From Escherichia coli (GTDB lineage Bacteria > Pseudomonadota > Gammaproteobacteria > Enterobacterales > Enterobacteriaceae), in the NCBI RefSeq assembly GCF_003334315.1, contig NZ_QOWR01000066.1: a DNA stretch of 23,614 bases; one strand, given 5' to 3'. How positions within the stretch are numbered: the first letter of the stretch is position 1; the number at the start of each line of letters is the position of its first letter. The notes under the pieces were generated by a model, which was given only the letters and a program-made list of their open reading frames with translations, did not search any database and was not told the DNA's origin. Made by a program: the position numbers and the translations under genes. This document shows positions 1,586 through 23,614 of this stretch, one piece after another.

Positions 1586-3256
1586 ATGGATAATGCAGAA
1601 CTCGCCATTGGTATCGATCTCGGTACTACCAATAGTTTAATTGCCGTCTGGAAAGACGGTGCCGCGCAATTAATTCCAAATAAGTTCGGTGAATATTTAA
1701 CACCATCCATAATTAGCATGGATGAAAATAATCATATTTTAGTCGGAAAACCGGCTGTATCACGGCGTACTTCGCATCCGGATAAAACGGCAGCGTTATT
1801 TAAACGTGCAATGGGCAGTAATACCAACTGGCGGTTAGGCAGCGACACATTTAACGCGCCAGAACTGTCCTCTTTGGTATTACGCTCATTAAAAGAAGAT
1901 GCCGAAGAATTTCTGCAACGTCCGATTAAAGATGTGGTGATCTCCGTTCCGGCTTATTTCAGCGATGAACAACGCAAGCATACCCGTTTAGCAGCGGAGT
2001 TAGCCGGGTTAAATGCGGTACGCTTAATTAATGAACCCACAGCAGCTGCGATGGCGTATGGCCTGCATACCCAACAAAATACCCGTTCGCTGGTGTTTGA
2101 TCTCGGTGGCGGCACGTTTGACGTTACGGTGCTTGAGTACGCCACGCCGGTGATTGAAGTTCACGCCTCCGCTGGCGACAACTTTCTTGGTGGCGAAGAT
2201 TTTACCCATATGCTGGTCGATGAGGTTTTAAAACGCGCGGATGTCGCCAGGACCACGCTTAACGAGAGTGAACTGGCAGCCTTGTACGCCTGTGTGGAAG
2301 CGGCAAAATGTAGCAATCAATCGCCATTGCACATTCGCTGGCAGTATCAGGAAGAAACGCGGGAATGCGAATTTTACGAGAACGAACTGGAAGATTTGTG
2401 GTTGCCGCTGCTCAATCGCTTGCGAGTGCCGATTGAACAGGCGTTGCGCGATGCGCGTCTGAAGCCGAGTCAAATCGACAGTCTGGTGCTGGTTGGCGGC
2501 GCGTCACAAATGCCGCTGGTGCAGCGAATCGCCGTGCGTCTGTTTGGCAAATTACCGTATCAAAGTTACGATCCGAGCACCATTGTCGCGCTGGGCGCAG
2601 CAATCCAGGCCGCCTGCCGCTTACGCAGTGAAGATATTGAAGAGGTAATCCTCACTGATATTTGCCCTTACTCGTTGGGCGTTGAAGTTAACCGCCAGGG
2701 CGTTTCCGGCATTTTCTCGCCGATTATTGAACGAAACACCACTGTGCCCGTGTCGCGTGTAGAAACTTATTCAACCATGCACCCGGAACAGGATTCAATT
2801 ACGGTTAACGTCTATCAGGGAGAAAACCACAAAGTTAAAAACAACATTCTGGTGGAATCCTTCGATGTGCCGTTGAAGAAAACCGGGGCTTATCAGTCGA
2901 TTGATATTCGCTTTAGTTATGATATCAACGGGTTGCTTGAAGTTGACGTGCTTCTGGAAGACGGCAGCGTTAAGTCCAGAGTGATTAACCACAGCCCGGT
3001 AACATTGAGCGCGCAGCAGATTGAAGAGAGTCGGACGCGGTTATCCGCATTGAAAATTTATCCGCGCGATATGCTCATCAATCGCACCTTTAAAGCCAAA
3101 CTGGAAGAGTTGTGGGCGCGGGCGCTGGGTGACGAGCGAGAAGAGATCGGCCGGGTGATCACCGATTTTGATGCGGCGTTGCAGTCAAACGATATGGCCC
3201 GCGTGGATGAAGTTCGGCGGCGGGCGAGCGATTATTTAGCCATTGAGATCCCATAA
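1586..3256 (+). CDS. hscC: Hsp70-family chaperone HscC (Hsc62)
   Basis: 556-aa ORF with Hsp70 signatures: IGIDLGTTNS near the N-terminus, VFDLGGGTFDVTVL, and LVLVGGASQMP. Length and N-terminus MDNAELAIGIDLGTTNSLIAVW match recalled HscC. Confidence 0.9.
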   Translation: MDNAELAIGIDLGTTNSLIAVWKDGAAQLIPNKFGEYLTPSIISMDENNHILVGKPAVSRRTSHPDKTAALFKRAMGSNTNWRLGSDTFNAPELSSLVLRSLKEDAEEFLQRPIKDVVISVPAYFSDEQRKHTRLAAELAGLNAVRLINEPTAAAMAYGLHTQQNTRSLVFDLGGGTFDVTVLEYATPVIEVHASAGDNFLGGEDFTHMLVDEVLKRADVARTTLNESELAALYACVEAAKCSNQSPLHIRWQYQEETRECEFYENELEDLWLPLLNRLRVPIEQALRDARLKPSQIDSLVLVGGASQMPLVQRIAVRLFGKLPYQSYDPSTIVALGAAIQAACRLRSEDIEEVILTDICPYSLGVEVNRQGVSGIFSPIIERNTTVPVSRVETYSTMHPEQDSITVNVYQGENHKVKNNILVESFDVPLKKTGAYQSIDIRFSYDINGLLEVDVLLEDGSVKSRVINHSPVTLSAQQIEESRTRLSALKIYPRDMLINRTFKAKLEELWARALGDEREEIGRVITDFDAALQSNDMARVDEVRRRASDYLAIEIP

Positions 3257-3263
3257 ACACGGC

Positions 3264-3295
3264 TGCCGGATGCGGCGTAAACGCTGCATCCGGCA
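3264..3295. repeat. REP-like (repetitive extragenic palindromic) element at the convergent hscC/djlC junction; probably also a bidirectional terminator
   Basis: TGCCGGATGCGGCGTAAACGCTGCATCCGGCA is an imperfect palindrome with the GCCGGATGCGGCG motif characteristic of enterobacterial REP sequences. Confidence 0.6.
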
Positions 3296-3315
3296 TCGGC
3301 GCAAAAAACACATCG

Positions 3316-4758
3316 TCAGCTAAACAACATCGCGATTTTGCCGAGAGCATAACCTATCACCAGCACCGTTAAACTGATTTTGATAATGCTGGTAATGCTC
3401 TGTGGTTTTTCACCCTCATCATTTTTTTCTTCATGATTTTCAGGTGTTGGCTCATCGACATCTTCATCCTCCGGCTCGAGTTTCACTTTCGTCAAAAGCA
3501 TCCGGGTGACAATGGCCTCTAATTCTCCGCCTTCCAGCCTTGTATTAAGACGGGCCAGCATCTCTTGTTTCGGAAACGCTTCAAGTACTACCTGTTCCGC
3601 TACCCGATACAAATCCAGGAACGGTGAATCTTGCTCTGTCTCGCTACCGACTCTCGATTTCCACCACGCCCATGCTTTGCGCTTGAAGAATAACGACTCA
3701 ATAAACGATTGACCTAACGGCGATAATTTTCCGCTATGTAAAATCTCCGCCCATAACAGCCGCGTCCGGGCGCTCTCACCAGGAACATATTTCAGCGGTT
3801 GACCTTGCGCATCTACCATGCTCCGCGCTTCGATAACCATCACTAATAACGCGAAATAATCCGGGCAATGACGCTTGCTCCACTGCAACAACAAATTATC
3901 AGCTTGTGTAGATGGGTAACTTTCCCAGTACGCGCAGAGATCGGCAAGCAGGCTTTCCCCCTCGCCGCAGTACAAACGTTGTGCACACAAGTAATACCGG
4001 GCATCTTCGCTTTCTGGTTCTTCCGTTTGCCACTGTTGAGCGACAGGAATGAGTTCCGCCATACCTGTTTGCACCGAGCTGTACCAGCGCAACAGTTTGC
4101 GATGTAACTTTGCATCATCAGGAATTAACCACGGACCTTCCATCGCCAAAAACGCAGTGACATAGTCAGGATGGTAACGGCAGCAACGTTCCAGCGCGAA
4201 GTAATACTCAACAGTCTGGTTCTGCAACGCAATGGGATATTCCAGAAGGCTAAGGAAATCGAAACAATCACCAGCCTGAATGGCCTCAAGAAAAGCCTCC
4301 CTTTCTTCCTCATCCATTCCTTCGCTGTCATTAAATGAATGCCAGTTCAAACGCTCTGCCAGCAAAGAAGCACAATTTAATGAAAGATATCGCGCTTCTA
4401 TGGCGATTGCACACAGCGGCCAGCGTAATTGATCGACATCCTCCATGTTCCAGGTATTTAATTGCTGAATAAATTTCTGCCAGGCGGAAGGCTGAAAACG
4501 ATCACTTTCTGAATCCAGTAATGTCCTGAATGCACGTAGTATTTCATGTTCAGCGGCAGCATCTTTTTCTTCATCATCTGCTTCCTCGACAGGATTTACC
4601 GCCAGTCGCAGGGCCTCTTCATAGGCCTGGCGTAATGCTTTAAACCCTTGCGGATCGGTTTCGGGATGACACAACGGTAAGCGAGCAAGATAAGCCTGGC
4701 GGATAATGTCTATTTGCGTCGTGCTTTCAATTTCGAGGATTTGCCAACATGTTTTCAT
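3316..4758 (-). CDS. djlC: J-domain (DnaJ-like) C-terminally membrane-anchored protein DjlC, putative HscC co-chaperone
   Basis: 480-aa ORF. N-terminus [50 protein letters not shown] aligns to J-domain helices II/III with HPE in place of HPD. C-terminus ...[26 protein letters not shown] is a hydrophobic tail anchor. Its start overlaps the ybeU stop (ATGA). Confidence 0.85.
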
Positions 4759-5462
4759 AGGTCGCTCACATCCTTAAGCGTTACCGGGCATTCAGACTGG
4801 ACAGTTAATGGCTGCCAGGGAAGCGTGGCATAGAAACGATCGCTTCCCGCTGCCAGCTCTTCGAACATACGACTCCCGGCGCTATCGTATTTGTACAGGG
4901 TTAGCGCCTCGCGTAGCGAAGTGTTGTCTTCGCACTGAGAAGATTGCCAGTAGAGACGTCCTAACGAATAGGCGGAAAAATAGTGCATCCAGCTGTGATA
5001 GTAATGGTGAGCTCGTACATAGACGCGCGATTGCAGCCATAAACTCTCTTCTTCCGTCAGCCACTTGTTGAGCACACCGACCCGTGACAGAAACCCCATT
5101 CGAACATAATCCCAGGCTTTGATTCCCCCTTCCCCACAGCACATAGCGGTTTGGGCAACGAATTGGGTATAAATCAACCCTCTCTCCGAGCCACCAGCAA
5201 TTAATGCTTTCCACTCTTCAGGGGAAGAGCGATGCCATGTCAGATATAAGCCAGCTAAATCATTGGCATGACCATCATCAGTCATCTGATAAATAGTCTG
5301 AATTAAATCATCACGATTATTTATTCCCCAGGATGATGAGAGCTCGAATTCTTTTATCCCAGTATACATTTTTGGCGAGTCATGCGCGGGTTTGCAACCC
5401 TGATTAAGTATTTCCATGGGCGCAGAAAGCGCAAAAAGAAGATATTGTTCTTCCTTATTCAT
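4755..5462 (-). CDS. ybeU: DUF1266-like protein YbeU (function unknown), first gene of a ybeU-djlC operon
   Basis: 235-aa ORF, a clear paralog of the ybeR product at 7552..8259 (shared blocks ...[20 protein letters not shown]...). AAGGGA Shine-Dalgarno upstream; stop overlaps the djlC start. Confidence 0.85.
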
Positions 5463-5563
5463 TTGTTAATAATCCCTTAAGTGCATTAACTGACTACTTT
5501 TTTATTATTGATGAGTATAAACTTGACGCTTTCAAAATAAAAAGAAAATCGAAGCATTCACAC

Positions 5564-6118
5564 ATGAATAAAAAATTAATGTATATATTCGCAATTTTTA
5601 TAGTTGCAGCAATTACCTGTATTAGCCAACCCAAGAAAACGACGTTGCGTGATAAAGCCATGGTGAATTATGCCTTTGATTATTTAAGCTCACCGGGCAG
5701 TCTTCCATTCACCACGGCAGCCACGGAGCTTTCCGCGATTCATGGTCACTCAACGTCGCAATATCGCCTTGGAGAATTTTATCTTCATGGTAGCGACGGT
5801 AAACCACTGGATTATACACAGGCGAGATACTGGTATGAGCAATCAGCGGAACAGGAAAATCCACGCGCGCAAAGTAAACTGGGGTGGATCTACCTCAAAG
5901 GTCTGGGGGTCAAACCCGACACCCGTAAAGCAATTCTCTGGTATAAGGAAGCAGCTGAACAAGGGTATGCTCATGCTCAATATACTTTAGGTTTGATCTA
6001 CAGAAATGGCTCAGGTATTAATGTTAACCATTATGAATCTCAAAAATGGTTAAAACTGGCCGCCAAACAACATTACAAAAATGCGGAAAGATTACTTGCC
6101 GGGCTTCCCGCACATTAA
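5564..6118 (+). CDS. ybeT: Sel1-repeat protein YbeT with N-terminal hydrophobic signal/anchor
   Basis: 184-aa ORF. N-terminus [22 protein letters not shown] is hydrophobic. Repeated Sel1-like units are visible ([50 protein letters not shown]...). Transcribed divergently from ybeU. Confidence 0.85.
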
Positions 6119-6127
6119 CGTCGACTG

Positions 6128-7555
6128 TCACCCGAACAGATGGAGTATTTTCCCTATCAAACCAGCAAAGATAAAAATATAGAAAATAATTTTAATGATG
6201 CCCAGACAGCCTGGCCCACCATCGTCAACGGGCATTGGCTGCGGTTGCGGCTCCGGTTCAACAGTTTGCTTCTCGGTAAAATTCGCCGCCTGAATTAATA
6301 ATCGACGAATAATTAATGCTTCCAGTGGACAACGATTTTCTGCATCAAGGCGGCTCACAATCGGCATTAATGATTCTTCTGTAGGTTGGCAGGCCTGCAC
6401 TAATTGTTTGGCAACTAGATATAATGGCCATAAGGTATGTTCTGTATCACGCGTGAGTGAGATCCGCGGCTTACGTCCTTTGTGCAAAACCATCTCGACC
6501 AGTGAACGCCCCAGCGCAGAGAGTTTTTCATCGCTGAGTATTTCGTATAAATGAAAACGCGTACGGGCGCTGTCGCCGGGGACATAAAGTAGCGGTTTTC
6601 CCTGATCGTTAACCAGATCACGCGCTTCAATCATCATCACCAGTAATGGGTAATAATCGACCCGATGCTGACGGCATCATTGCAACATTAAAGCATCCGC
6701 CTGGGTGGAGGGATACTCGCGCCAGTAGTCACAAAGTTCTGCCAACAGGCTTTCGCCTTCTCCACAATAGACGCGTTGCGCGTATTCATAATAAGGCGCA
6801 TCTTCATTATCAGGTTCAGTTTCCCGCCATGACTGGGCGTAATCCAGAAGTTCGGGGATATCCAGGCGACCTGCGCTATACCAGCGGAGTAAATTTCTGT
6901 GCAGTTTTGCATCATCGGGGATAATCACTGCGCGATGTTGCGCTAAATACAATGTCAGCCATTGTGGATGCGATGACCAAATCCGAGCGAACATTTGGTA
7001 AAAATCGATGGTGTCATTTTGCACGGCAACGGGCAGATGCAGAATGGTCTGGAAGTTAAAAACATTCCCCTTCGCAATGGCATATAAAAAGGATTCCAGT
7101 TCTTCTTCGTCTATTTCCCCGGTATTTTCCTCCTGTAACCACCGCAATCTTTCTGCTAATAACACCACGCACTCGAAGGATAAATGGGCAGTGTTCATGG
7201 CGATTGTGCACAGCGACCAGCGTAATTCATCAATCTCCTCCATCGAGCAATAATTTAATTGCTGAATGAATCGCTGCCAGGCGGAGGGCAGAAAACGTTC
7301 ACTATCAGAGGCAAGTAACGCACGAAAGGCGAGCAGAATTTCATGTTCTGCTACCTCATATTCTTCTGGTTGCCAAACAGATTTAGCAGGCGACTGCGCA
7401 ATCCGTAGCGCCTCCTCATACGCCTGACGAAGTTGTTTAAAACCCTGCGGATCGGTTTCTGGATGAAAGGACGGTAACAGCGCCAGATAAGCGCGGCGGA
7501 TAATATCGACGTCAGTCGTTTCCTCTATATCGAGGATCTTCCAGCAATTTTTCAT
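6128..7555 (-). pseudogene. djlB: djlB, J-domain membrane protein paralogous to DjlC, interrupted by a single in-frame TGA
   Basis: ORFs 6677..7555 (292 aa, [39 protein letters not shown]...) and 6128..6640 (170 aa) are in the same frame, separated only by TGA at 6677-6679 (minus strand). Alignment with DjlC (…[27 protein letters not shown]…) against DjlB (…[26 protein letters not shown]…) places the stop where DjlC has Trp (TGG). Confidence 0.8.
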
Positions 7556-8259
7556 AGGTCGCTCATATCCTTAAGCGTTTCCGGGCATGCAGAATAGTAA
7601 GCCAATGGTTGCCAGGACAAGGTAGGGTAATACGCATCATCACTGGCAAATAATTGATAAAACATATCATTGCTGGAATCGTCGTATTCTTTACGCGCTA
7701 AGAATTCGCGTAATAAAGGCAGATGATCATCTTCGGGAGACTGCCAATATTGCCGACCAAAGGTATAACCGGCAAAGTATTGCCGCCAGTTACTATAATA
7801 ACGTAGAGCCCGTAGATGAATGCGCGACTGGATCCATAGACTTTCTTCTTCGCTCAACCAGTTATTAAGTACGCCCATTCGGCTTAAAAAACCCATCCGG
7901 ACATAATCCCAGGCTTTGATTCCCCCTTCGCCACAGCATTCGGCGGTGCTGGCGACAAATTGCGCATAAGCCTGACCTTGCTCATTTAGTTCAGCAAGAT
8001 AGTCACGCCATTCACATGGCGAATAACGAAACCAGCGGTGATAAAACCCTGCCAACCGAGCGGCATGACCGTTATCGATCATTCGGTGAATTGTGCGCAG
8101 CAGGTCATCACGGTCATCAATTCCCCATGAGGAAGAAAGGTCAAAAAAGCATGTACCTAAATACATTTTGGGTGATGAATGCGAAGGTAAACAGCATTCA
8201 TTGCGTATTTCCATCGGAGTGGAAAGTGCAAACAATATTTTTTGCGACTCCATGTCCAT
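7552..8259 (-). CDS. ybeR: DUF1266-like protein YbeR (paralog of YbeU), first gene of a ybeR-djlB operon
   Basis: 235-aa ORF, colinear with YbeU ([23 protein letters not shown]... vs [23 protein letters not shown]...). Its stop overlaps the djlB start (ATGA). Confidence 0.85.
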
Positions 8260-8416
8260 ATAATTTATCCTTAAATATTCATTAAATGAATATTAGCCGC
8301 ATTGCGAGGCTCGTTTATTTATACTTTTCTGACGCGACATAATACGCATAAAATAAGGCTTACGCAAAAATGGAACACATAAAAATATAATATGTTTTAT
8401 CTGCAACCATAAGGAA

Positions 8417-9400
8417 ATGATAATGATTTTCACGTCAAGTTGCTGCGATAATTTATCAATAGATGAGATTATCGAACGTGCTGAAAAAGGCGATTGCGAG
8501 GCTCAATATATTGTTGGGTTTTATTATAATCGCGATAGCGCAATTGATTCTCCGGACGACGAAAAAGCCTTTTACTGGCTGAAGCTGGCCGCTGAGCAAG
8601 GTCATTGTGAAGCACAGTATTCCTTAGGGCAAAAGTATACCGAGGATAAAAGCCGTCATAAAGATAATGAGCAAGCCATCTTCTGGCTGAAAAAAGCTGC
8701 CCTACAAGGCCATACTTTCGCTTCCAACGCCCTTGGCTGGACACTGGATCGTGGAGAAGCCCCCAATTATAAAGAAGCGGTTGTCTGGTATCAGATAGCC
8801 GCGGAGAGCGGAATGTCTTATGCGCAAAATAATCTTGGGTGGATGTACAGAAATGGCAACGGAGTCGCAAAAGACTATGCGCTGGCATTTTTCTGGTACA
8901 AACAAGCTGCATTACAAGGCCATAGTGACGCGCAAAACAATCTGGCCGATCTTTATGAAGACGGAAAAGGCGTTGCTCAAAACAAGACACTCGCCGCATT
9001 CTGGTATTTGAAAAGCGCACAGCAGGGTAATCGGCACGCCCAGTTTCAAATTGCATGGGATTATAACGCTGGCGAAGGGGTGGACCAGGACTATAAGCAA
9101 GCGATGTACTGGTATCTGAAGGCTGCCGCTCAGGGGAGCGTCGGCGCTTACGTCAACATCGGTTATATGTATAAACACGGACAAGGCGTTGAGAAAGATT
9201 ATCAGGCTGCCTTTGAATGGTTTACGAAAGCCGCTGAATGCAATGACGCCACTGCCTGGTATAACCTGGCCATTATGTATCACTACGGAGAAGGAAGACC
9301 TGTCGATCTCCGACAGGCTCTCGACCTGTATCGTAAAGTTCAGTCATCCGGAACCAGAGATGTCAGTCAGGAAATTCGTGAGACTGAAGATTTACTGTAG
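8417..9400 (+). CDS. ybeQ: Sel1-repeat (TPR-like) protein YbeQ
   Basis: 327-aa ORF with at least seven tandem ~36-aa Sel1-like units of pattern AQxxLGxxYxxGxGVxxDxxxAxxWYxKAAxQG. Transcribed divergently from ybeR. The exact start is uncertain (ATG at 8417 or 8423). Confidence 0.8.
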   Translation: MIMIFTSSCCDNLSIDEIIERAEKGDCEAQYIVGFYYNRDSAIDSPDDEKAFYWLKLAAEQGHCEAQYSLGQKYTEDKSRHKDNEQAIFWLKKAALQGHTFASNALGWTLDRGEAPNYKEAVVWYQIAAESGMSYAQNNLGWMYRNGNGVAKDYALAFFWYKQAALQGHSDAQNNLADLYEDGKGVAQNKTLAAFWYLKSAQQGNRHAQFQIAWDYNAGEGVDQDYKQAMYWYLKAAAQGSVGAYVNIGYMYKHGQGVEKDYQAAFEWFTKAAECNDATAWYNLAIMYHYGEGRPVDLRQALDLYRKVQSSGTRDVSQEIRETEDLL

Positions 9401-9410
9401 AGATAAAAAC

Positions 9411-9438
9411 AAGGGCCGGGGAATTTCATTCGGCCCAT
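9411..9438. terminator. Hairpin between convergent ybeQ and ybeL; possible bidirectional terminator
   Basis: AAGGGCCGGGGAATTTCATTCGGCCC has a GGGCCG/CGGCCC stem with flanking A/T runs. Confidence 0.4.
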
Positions 9439-23410: not shown

Positions 23411-23614
23411 GGTGATGCTGCCAACTTACTGATTTAGTGTATGATGGTGTTTTTGAGGTGCTCCAGTGGCTTCTGTTTCTATCAGCTGTCCCTCCTGTTC
23501 AGCTACTGACGGGGTGGTGCGTAACGGCAAAAGCACCGCCGGACATCAGCGCTATCTCTGCTCTCACTGCCGTAAAACATGGCAACTGCAGTTCACTTAC
23601 ACCGCTTCTCAACC
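23411..23614 (+). mobile_element. IS1 insertion sequence, left inverted repeat and 5' portion; continues past the window end
   Basis: GGTGATGCTGCCAACTTACTGATTTAGTGTATGATGGTGTTTTTGAGGTGCTCCAGTG... is the canonical IS1 terminal inverted repeat and leader. Confidence 0.9.
23466..23614 (+). CDS. insA: IS1 InsA (transposition repressor / transposase N-terminal part), partial
   Basis: From GTG at 23466 the frame encodes [48 protein letters not shown], the InsA zinc-finger N-terminus. Confidence 0.85.

Follow-up and report, generated by a model that had tools for sequence, protein, structure and literature searches.

We analyzed a 23,614-nucleotide stretch of Escherichia coli DNA (contig NZ_QOWR01000066.1, hereafter called the window) that carries a block of seven genes, hscC, djlC, ybeU, ybeT, djlB, ybeR and ybeQ, in which the Hsp70 chaperone HscC is encoded together with two J-domain proteins (DjlC and DjlB), two DUF1266 proteins (YbeU and YbeR) and two Sel1-repeat proteins (YbeT and YbeQ). 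The locus is a known, annotated chaperone cluster and the bare finding is not new. What appears to be new, as judged from sequence comparisons, is that HscC systems across bacteria include an obligate third member, DUF1266, whose gene is translationally coupled to that of the J-protein. HscC, the J-protein and the DUF1266 protein very probably act as one functional unit. That the trio is a dedicated three-part Hsp70 machine, made up of HscC, an HPE-containing, TPR-like J-protein and DUF1266, is the reading we favor, held with less assurance but as better than an even bet. The Sel1 genes and the second DUF1266/J-protein module are, on the same comparative grounds, enterobacterial extras.

HscC is the only one of the three E. 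coli Hsp70 proteins whose purpose is unknown, more than 20 years after its biochemistry was described, and DUF1266, a family not known to have been studied before, is the first concrete candidate for its missing client, adaptor or regulator. The trio is a clean minimal system that comes in two natural architectures, one membrane-anchored and the other a soluble TPR form. Since the second module and the Sel1 genes belong to certain lineages only, work can start from a single three-gene cassette, and the question of HscC function is now more directly testable. An original prediction, made from the letters of this DNA alone, had portrayed the block differently, as two tandem J-protein/DUF1266/Sel1 modules forming a membrane-associated Hsp70 targeting system, in which the Sel1 and DUF1266 proteins would serve as adaptors or substrates, possibly in stress or phage defense.

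Linkage of the hscC, J-protein and DUF1266 genes across bacteria

A YbeU-family profile was used to scan one genome per species (GTDB set) and linkage was scored outward from the DUF1266 genes; in an HscC protein search, the relatives among the matches listed came from Escherichia and Salmonella only. Matches were found at 74 loci, distributed over 13 genera: Escherichia, Klebsiella, Leminorella, Rahnella, Pragia, Limnobaculum, Erwinia, Pectobacterium, Gilliamella, Pseudomonas, Marinobacter, Bowmanella and Bdellovibrio. An additional locus was a probable contaminant contig. (At the end of a contig assigned to 'Paenibacillus sp. USDA918EY' there is a ybeU fragment, L008 10001-10387, that has 100% identity to the E. 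coli gene; this is probably contamination or a chimeric contig.) The loci were searched as six-frame open reading frames (ORFs) with the window proteins, and the trio was counted in the 59 loci having at least 5 kb of downstream flank. Both a J-protein and HscC were present in 58 of these 59 loci, the exception being Leminorella, which had no hscC within 7 kb. The arrangement was consistent: the DUF1266 gene led into a DjlB/DjlC-like gene of the same orientation, and the HscC gene came just after, usually convergent. All-against-all clustering of the ORFs showed that just the HscC, DUF1266 and J-protein families were common across genera. As the flanking genes vary from genus to genus, the trio behaves as a self-contained cassette.

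The DUF1266 and J-protein genes were always adjacent and almost always translationally coupled. The DUF1266 stop codon overlapped the J-protein start codon in all 74 loci, by an ATGA sequence in 71 and by TAATG in three. Within the window both DUF1266/J-gene junctions are 4-nt ATGA overlaps (CTATGAAAA), exactly as the original prediction had described them.

The linkage extends well beyond the scanned loci. We sampled seven more distant cytosolic DUF1266 proteins (20-26% identity), all seven of which adjoin a J/TPR/DjlB_C_2nd protein (DjlB_C_2nd is a family in the newer Pfam release) and six of which have an Hsp70 beside them. The Vibrio aerogenes and Aeromonas loci have the gammaproteobacterial gene arrangement. 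Those of Sessilibacter corallicola, Clostridium carboxidivorans P7, a Desulfobacteraceae metagenome-assembled genome and one metagenomic contig have the order hsp70-J-DUF1266 on one strand, with the J-protein and DUF1266 genes overlapping or abutting. The seventh locus is cut by a contig end, and the gene ahead of DUF1266 there encodes a Sessilibacter J-protein homolog. Given the different gene order in the four distant loci, the linkage survives rearrangement. Hence, adjacency of the J-protein and DUF1266 genes is the invariant, the Hsp70 gene moves around this pair, and the trio is co-inherited across phyla.

The Hsp70 of the trio is recognizably HscC, which is a short Hsp70. E. coli HscC matches the Hsp70 models but scores under the DnaK and HscA cut-offs, and the trio Hsp70 proteins of 11 other taxa (555-570 residues) are 40-83% identical to E. 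coli HscC versus 30-36% identical to E. coli DnaK and HscA.

The original prediction had asked whether Hsp70, J-protein, DUF1266 and Sel1 genes co-occur across genomes and held that it would be undone if the DUF1266 and Sel1 genes failed to accompany hscC and J-protein genes outside this lineage. DUF1266 does travel with the J-protein and HscC, whereas Sel1 does not: Sel1 genes are absent from the examined loci outside Escherichia, Salmonella and Citrobacter, and thus half of that refuting outcome was found. The proposal that DUF1266 and Sel1 proteins are both parts of the Hsp70 system therefore survives for DUF1266, the linkage of which is conserved far beyond Escherichia, and fails for Sel1, which stands outside the conserved system.

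Some details of these loci deserve mention. A 4-nt overlap involving both stop codons joins the convergent J-protein and hscC genes in many species of Pseudomonas (e.g., L029 13380-13383). In Budviciaceae, tartrate dehydrogenase-like and aldehyde dehydrogenase genes lie between the J-protein gene and hscC (L011 10946-13608; L009 13452-16056; L017; L047). The Desulfobacteraceae trio contig has Y1 (IS200-type) transposase genes on both sides (L094 1-374, 8007-8516), which hints at mobility.

Properties of the three proteins and how they might cooperate

HscC with DjlC and DjlB has been described as a third Hsp70 system (Kluck et al. 2002, through PMC8215388 and PMC13254874), and these are the same genes as those of the window. 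As described, that system has two components, and YbeU and YbeR are not named as partners in the literature found; neither the TPR-like body of the J-protein nor the long DUF805-anchored form found outside Enterobacteriaceae is part of the description. PMC8215388 reports that HscC ATPase activity is stimulated by DjlC and by no other E. coli J-protein (citing Kluck 2002), that DjlC is tail-anchored in the inner membrane (citing Peschke 2018) and that cadmium sensitivity is common to hscC and djlB djlC deletions. DjlB is assumed to act like DjlC, and both carry HPE in place of HPD (PMC8215388, PMC13254874). According to the same two reviews the physiological role of HscC is unknown, and its clients are still guessed at in PMC8215388. 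A large survey described DjlB and DjlC as J-proteins having no other domains (PMC10410713). In full-text literature (8 million texts) 'DUF1266' was named in a single, unrelated paper, and the papers naming ybeU or ybeR treated neither as a chaperone partner.

The J-domain motif of both DjlC and DjlB is HPETDPQGF. The Pfam DnaJ match of DjlC is weak (E 0.036), and 36 of 36 relatives match at E<=0.1. The HPE motif was present in 70 of the 74 J-proteins of the scanned loci, and the invariant positions of the J-protein alignment include P32, E33 and F39 within HPExDPxGF. The HPE signature is specific to this J-protein family. Joined across its internal stop codon, the DjlB translation is 49% identical to DjlC over the full length. 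Each protein has a single predicted hydrophobic segment at the extreme C-terminus (DjlC residues 454-480, DjlB residues 446-475), in agreement with the tail anchors proposed in the original prediction. Gammaproteobacterial J-proteins outside Escherichia, Salmonella, Citrobacter and Klebsiella are longer (about 890-970 residues) and end in a multi-span DUF805-type membrane region, not a tail anchor.

What lies between the J-domain and the membrane end is less familiar. The AlphaFold model of DjlC is all-helical (predicted local distance difference test, pLDDT, 86.5; predicted template modeling score, pTM, 0.71). Matches to Pfam TPR families occur in the J-proteins of both Clostridium and Sessilibacter, and those in the Clostridium protein span residues 285-798. 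Because of the all-helical model and of these TPR matches, we regard the J-protein as a J-domain carried on a TPR-like platform, the modeled body being a TPR-like solenoid. A sequence search of the PDB with DjlC gave only chance-level matches, and NCBIfam contained no specific model for DjlC, YbeU or YbeR.

YbeU matches Pfam DUF1266 (PF06889) with an E value of 4.7e-45 over model positions 2-175 of 175, and YbeU and YbeR are 59% identical across all 235 residues. The YbeU AlphaFold model is a compact all-alpha structure (pLDDT 93.5, pTM 0.91), the AlphaFold database neighbors of which were members of its own family only; a PDB sequence search with the DUF1266 profile gave only chance-level matches. 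Residues W45, H65, W117, D118, R121, E139, W158, G168 and W172 are near-invariant in DUF1266. The DUF1266 proteins of the trio also have a common C-terminal tail, [KR]PxSLxE[FY]DWS-COOH, which in enteric bacteria reads CPxTLKDxSDL.

TPR domains typically clamp C-terminal peptides, and the trio DUF1266 proteins have a conserved tail. The existence of secreted proteins that fuse TPR repeats to DUF1266 also speaks for the three-part reading. In the mechanism we propose, DUF1266 and the J-protein would be produced at a set ratio and assemble with each other, DUF1266 sitting on the TPR-like body and perhaps being held there by its conserved tail. The J-domain would then load HscC onto DUF1266, or onto a client held by DUF1266, at the membrane. 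The translational coupling of the two genes and the TPR-like fold are what suggest that DUF1266 binds the J-protein and is an Hsp70 substrate. We regard this specific docking and client picture as tentative, its chances falling somewhat short of even. A broader extension, in which DUF1266 as an obligate partner (client, sensor or enzyme subunit) defines the purpose of HscC within an inner-membrane machine of Gammaproteobacteria having a role in envelope stress or conflict, is on present evidence doubtful. In that view DUF1266 would be to HscC what IscU is to HscA, and the rapid divergence, patchy distribution and H-NS silencing of the system would stem from such a role and not from one in general protein folding.

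The nearest analogy to the proposed mechanism is the presentation of IscU by HscB to HscA. In both cases a specialized Hsp70 has an exclusive J-protein, no exchange factor and a dedicated partner encoded beside it. However, there are no Fe-S genes at the HscC locus, DUF1266 is unrelated to IscU, and the J-protein is membrane-bound or TPR-rich. Other known systems resemble the trio in part. The eukaryotic TPR J-proteins DNAJC3/p58IPK and DNAJC7/TPR2 show a resemblance only at the level of fold: their J-domains are C-terminal, whereas that of the trio protein is N-terminal, and the trio protein is bacterial, has HPE, is usually membrane-anchored and has an obligate DUF1266 neighbor. DjlA is, like DjlC, a membrane-anchored J-protein, but its anchor is N-terminal and its J-domain C-terminal. 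The Hsp70 conflict systems of Kaur et al. 2020 (PMC7159879) likewise contain Hsp70, sometimes proteins fused to DnaJ or TPR domains, and variable clusters; they center on GTPases, tubulin homologs, GrpE and effector domains, none of which is present at the HscC locus.

CbpA and CbpM offer a different precedent. The small protein CbpM is encoded in an operon with CbpA and is specific for that one J-protein: by binding to its J-domain it prevents access to DnaK. In the same manner, DUF1266 could be a regulator that holds the J-protein off until a signal arrives, rather than a client or adaptor. The strict adjacency and translational coupling, which imply matched amounts of the two proteins, would suit such a regulator, as would the published example of an operon-encoded specific J-protein modulator (PMC8215388), and the conserved, pocket-like DUF1266 residues could bind a ligand. 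We nevertheless think a CbpM-like role unlikely. DUF1266 has no sequence or fold relation to CbpM and no PDB match, and in most lineages the gene order is opposite to that of cbpA-cbpM. CbpA and DjlA differ from the J-proteins considered here in that they work with DnaK and use HPD.

Several observations weigh against the three-part machine or against parts of it. The near-invariant DUF1266 residues are common to the cytosolic trio members and to secreted multidomain members, and hence DUF1266 may have an activity of its own rather than a passive client role. Two secreted DUF1266 proteins were checked and neither had an Hsp70 or J-protein nearby. The C-terminal tail may be conserved partly because its coding sequence overlaps the start of the gene that follows. 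Membrane anchoring is not universal, as the J-proteins of Clostridium and Sessilibacter have no hydrophobic segment. Finally, the block is incomplete or missing in about one-third of E. coli genomes.

Taken to its limit, the first of these observations would give DUF1266 an independent activity, enzymatic or binding, toward an envelope component or a small molecule, with only regulation in common with the chaperone pair. The secreted fusions agree with this: a TPR-DUF1266 combination occurs naturally, and other members are joined to SLH, copper amine oxidase N-terminal-like or LRR modules. It is, however, very unlikely. Every sampled cytosolic member adjoins a J-protein gene, the junctions overlap in 74 of 74 gammaproteobacterial cases, and it is adjacency to the J-protein, not to Hsp70, that survives rearrangement, a pattern typical of subunits of a complex.

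An observation of a different kind concerns YbeU. The Keio ybeU deletion strain is hypersusceptible to epetraborole, an inhibitor of leucyl-tRNA synthetase, for which the paper offers no explanation (PMC12457515). About 4.7 kb separate ybeU from leuS.

The Sel1 genes and the standing of the block in E. coli

The two Sel1 proteins are not a pair in the sense that the other paralogs are. YbeQ has eight Sel1 repeats (PF08238), and YbeT and the Salmonella and Citrobacter YbeQ orthologs also match this family. YbeT has a hydrophobic segment at residues 2-23, whereas YbeQ has none, and the two proteins are 36% identical in several repeat registers. Hence, of the paralogous pairs in the original prediction, YbeU/YbeR and DjlC/DjlB are as stated, whereas YbeT and YbeQ are alike only at the level of the repeat. 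The divergent transcription of both Sel1 genes from AT-rich gaps had been read correctly (101 bp at 28% GC and 157 bp at 29% GC).

Sel1 genes adjoin the cluster only in Escherichia, Salmonella and Citrobacter; at E<0.01, neither the 68 non-Escherichia loci of the scan nor the DNA examined for the distant trios contained any. In Salmonella and Citrobacter enshiensis the order is ybeL, a YbeQ ortholog, DUF1266, J, DUF1266, J and a convergent hscC, with no ybeT. The Salmonella YbeQ ortholog is in the same position and is 49% identical to that of E. coli. Best-match identity tracks position, the ybeQ-proximal pair resembling YbeR/DjlB and the hscC-proximal pair YbeU/DjlC. Klebsiella spallanzanii has just one DUF1266/J pair and lacks Sel1 genes. 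That Salmonella and Citrobacter carry both pairs but not ybeT indicates that the duplicated unit is two genes, DUF1266 plus J, and not the three-gene module first proposed, the Sel1 members of which differ in length and in predicted location. Both ybe/djl gene pairs are present in the window, djlB being a pseudogene there. We infer from the gene orders that the pair duplication and the recruitment of ybeQ predate the split of Escherichia, Salmonella and Citrobacter and that ybeT, the product of which is predicted to be exported, is a later insertion in Escherichia.

The notion that YbeQ replaces the missing half of the short enterobacterial J-proteins was discarded, as the short J-protein of K. 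spallanzanii is not accompanied by any Sel1 gene within 10 kb. In Escherichia sp. MOD1-EC7003, additional J-protein-like fragments lie past ybeQ and may be what is left of a third module (L004 3648-5003). Between hscC and rihA, Salmonella carries a 412-residue ORF that matches neither Pfam nor NCBIfam and is absent from the E. coli window (L078 15082-16320).

Within E. coli the block is an accessory region, as the original prediction had supposed. At least 80% of the 8.6-kb region was found in one place in 3657 of 5426 complete genomes. Deletion types were taken from 45 records at even steps down the ranking. Five of these, including sequence type (ST) 131, retained hscC-djlC-ybeU-ybeT and had lost djlB, ybeR and most of ybeQ, with djlB and ybeQ stubs remaining. 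In eight or nine records, including ST1193 and ST38, rihA adjoins ybeL across a 44-bp gap having a repetitive extragenic palindromic (REP)-like sequence. As the block is at the same site in Salmonella and Citrobacter, the E. coli absences are losses.

Expression of the block is restrained. In an hns mutant of strain 042 a DUF1266 gene was up 308-fold at 25 °C and 4-fold at 37 °C (PMC7582179), and SlyA overproduction raised ybeT 4.1-fold and ybeU-djlC 2.8-fold, both being in the H-NS regulon (PMC5797941). These published data fit a silenced accessory locus, one that is silenced by H-NS and dispensable in E. coli. HscC, DjlB and DjlC are under the detection limit in growing cells (PMC8215388).

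The ratios of nonsynonymous to synonymous substitution rates (dN/dS) in comparison with E. whittamii were 0.02 for hscC, 0.06 for ybeR, 0.10 for djlC, 0.11 each for ybeU, ybeT and ybeQ, and 0.13 for djlB; purifying selection acts on all seven genes of the block. When E. coli was compared with Salmonella, the amino acid identities were 92% for RihA and 91% for YbeL, the flanking proteins, and 83% for HscC, with values of 64% for YbeR, 62% for YbeU, 54% for DjlC and 49% for YbeQ. The accessory components thus diverge much faster than the flanking proteins.

The djlB reading frame of the window is interrupted by a TGA at codon 293, which is TGG, one base different, in K-12-type genomes. The result is ORFs of 292 and 170 residues, and RefSeq flags the gene as a pseudogene ('internal stop'). 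An exact 63-mer around the stop codon was found in 50 of 5426 complete E. coli genomes. As dN/dS of djlB (0.12-0.17) is equally low before and after the stop, the inactivation is recent.

Given these losses, the interrupted djlB, the strong silencing, the scarcity of the proteins in growing cells and a frameshifted ybeU reported in a Salmonella isolate, the E. coli block could be viewed as a cryptic, decaying remnant without present function, in which the gene arrangement reflects shared ancestry alone. We consider this very unlikely. Between Escherichia species dN/dS is 0.02-0.13 in every one of the seven genes, most genomes have intact ORFs with the djlB stop confined to those 50, deletion phenotypes are reported in PMC8215388, and retention of the trio across phyla and through gene reordering is unexplained by shared ancestry alone.

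The original scheme of two J-protein/DUF1266/Sel1 modules and a possible defense role can be weighed on the same evidence. Some facts speak for it: the Sel1 genes diverge from AT-rich regions shared with the DUF1266-J genes, SlyA co-induces ybeT and ybeU-djlC, the position of ybeQ is kept in three genera, and the block is variable, AT-rich, silenced by H-NS and fast-evolving (DjlC 54% and YbeQ 49% versus flanks of 91-92%). In addition, ybeT was a transposon-directed insertion-site sequencing match with phage Arnold, but the knockout strain behaved as wild type (bioRxiv 10.1101/2025.12.01.691526). The scheme is nonetheless quite improbable given the restriction of Sel1 genes to three genera, the unlike sizes and predicted locations of YbeT and YbeQ and the absence of ybeT in Salmonella and Citrobacter.

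Nothing that was found supports the defense role. When all seven proteins were searched with PADLOC, HscC, DjlC, YbeU and YbeR gave zero matches and the Sel1 proteins gave marginal matches that amount to repeat noise, with no significant domain. No defense genes were present among the annotated neighbors in a small sample of six loci (Salmonella, Citrobacter, Vibrio, Aeromonas, Sessilibacter and Clostridium), where the neighbors have metabolic or housekeeping roles. Phage records essentially do not contain the trio, the matches there being unannotated fragments of 1.5-2.6 kb. Plasmid matches were to mislabeled chromosomes or Erwinia persicina megaplasmids, and the trio is otherwise off mobile plasmids. 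Patchiness, fast evolution, silencing and the IS200-type flanks of the Desulfobacteraceae copy make a conflict role possible but unsupported.

The Erwinia persicina DUF1266 gene is on non-mobilizable plasmids of 130-165 kb, and several E. coli 'plasmid' matches are records of 0.3-4.9 Mb resembling chromosomal sequence. Plasmid records with DUF1266 matches include NZ_CP082142.1, NZ_CP101614.1, NZ_CP022727.1 and NZ_CP146505.1.

Layout of the window

The stretch is E. coli chromosome, with 100% identity to E. coli chromosomes including that of strain 2018-11-3CC, and the block is 99.9% identical to K-12-type genomes. The hscC start and the ybeQ stop mark the exact limits of positions 1586-9400, and the GC content of this block is 47.0% versus 51.9% in the remaining window. 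In the RefSeq annotation the block is preceded by gltL and rihA and is followed by ybeL, leuS, lptE, holA, nadD, cobC, rsfS, rlmH, mrdA, mrdB, rlpA, dacA, ybeD, lipB and the start of IS1A. The features of the block are given in Table 1.

Table 1 Features of the hscC-ybeQ block in window coordinates
Feature	Position	Strand	Description
hscC	1586..3256	+	HscC-type Hsp70, 556 residues; RefSeq 'molecular chaperone HscC'
REP-like GC-rich palindrome	3257..3315		Between convergent hscC and djlC; GCCGGATGCGGCGTAAACGCTGCATCCGGC, 61% GC
djlC	3316..4758	-	J-protein, 480 residues: N-terminal J-domain (HPE), TPR-like helical body, C-terminal tail anchor
ybeU	4755..5462	-	DUF1266 protein, 235 residues; stop overlaps djlC start (ATGA 4755-4758)
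AT-rich divergent control region, ybeU-djlC vs ybeT	5463..5563		101 bp, 28% GC
ybeT	5564..6118	+	Short Sel1-repeat protein, 184 residues, N-terminal hydrophobic signal or anchor
djlB	6128..7555	-	djlC paralog; pseudogene here, in-frame TGA 6677-6679
ybeR	7552..8259	-	DUF1266 paralog, 235 residues; stop overlaps djlB start (ATGA 7552-7555)
AT-rich divergent region, ybeR-djlB vs ybeQ	8260..8422		Gap 157 bp, 29% GC
ybeQ	8423..9400	+	Cytosolic, 8 Sel1 repeats, 325-327 residues

An Rfam search of the whole window gave zero matches, and a scan for promoter consensus sequences found fewer sites than in shuffled sequence and none in the divergent regions. A consensus scan located a terminator-like hairpin 3' of ybeQ at 9413-9436. 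At the end of the window an IS1A family transposase gene begins right after lipB (23466-23614).

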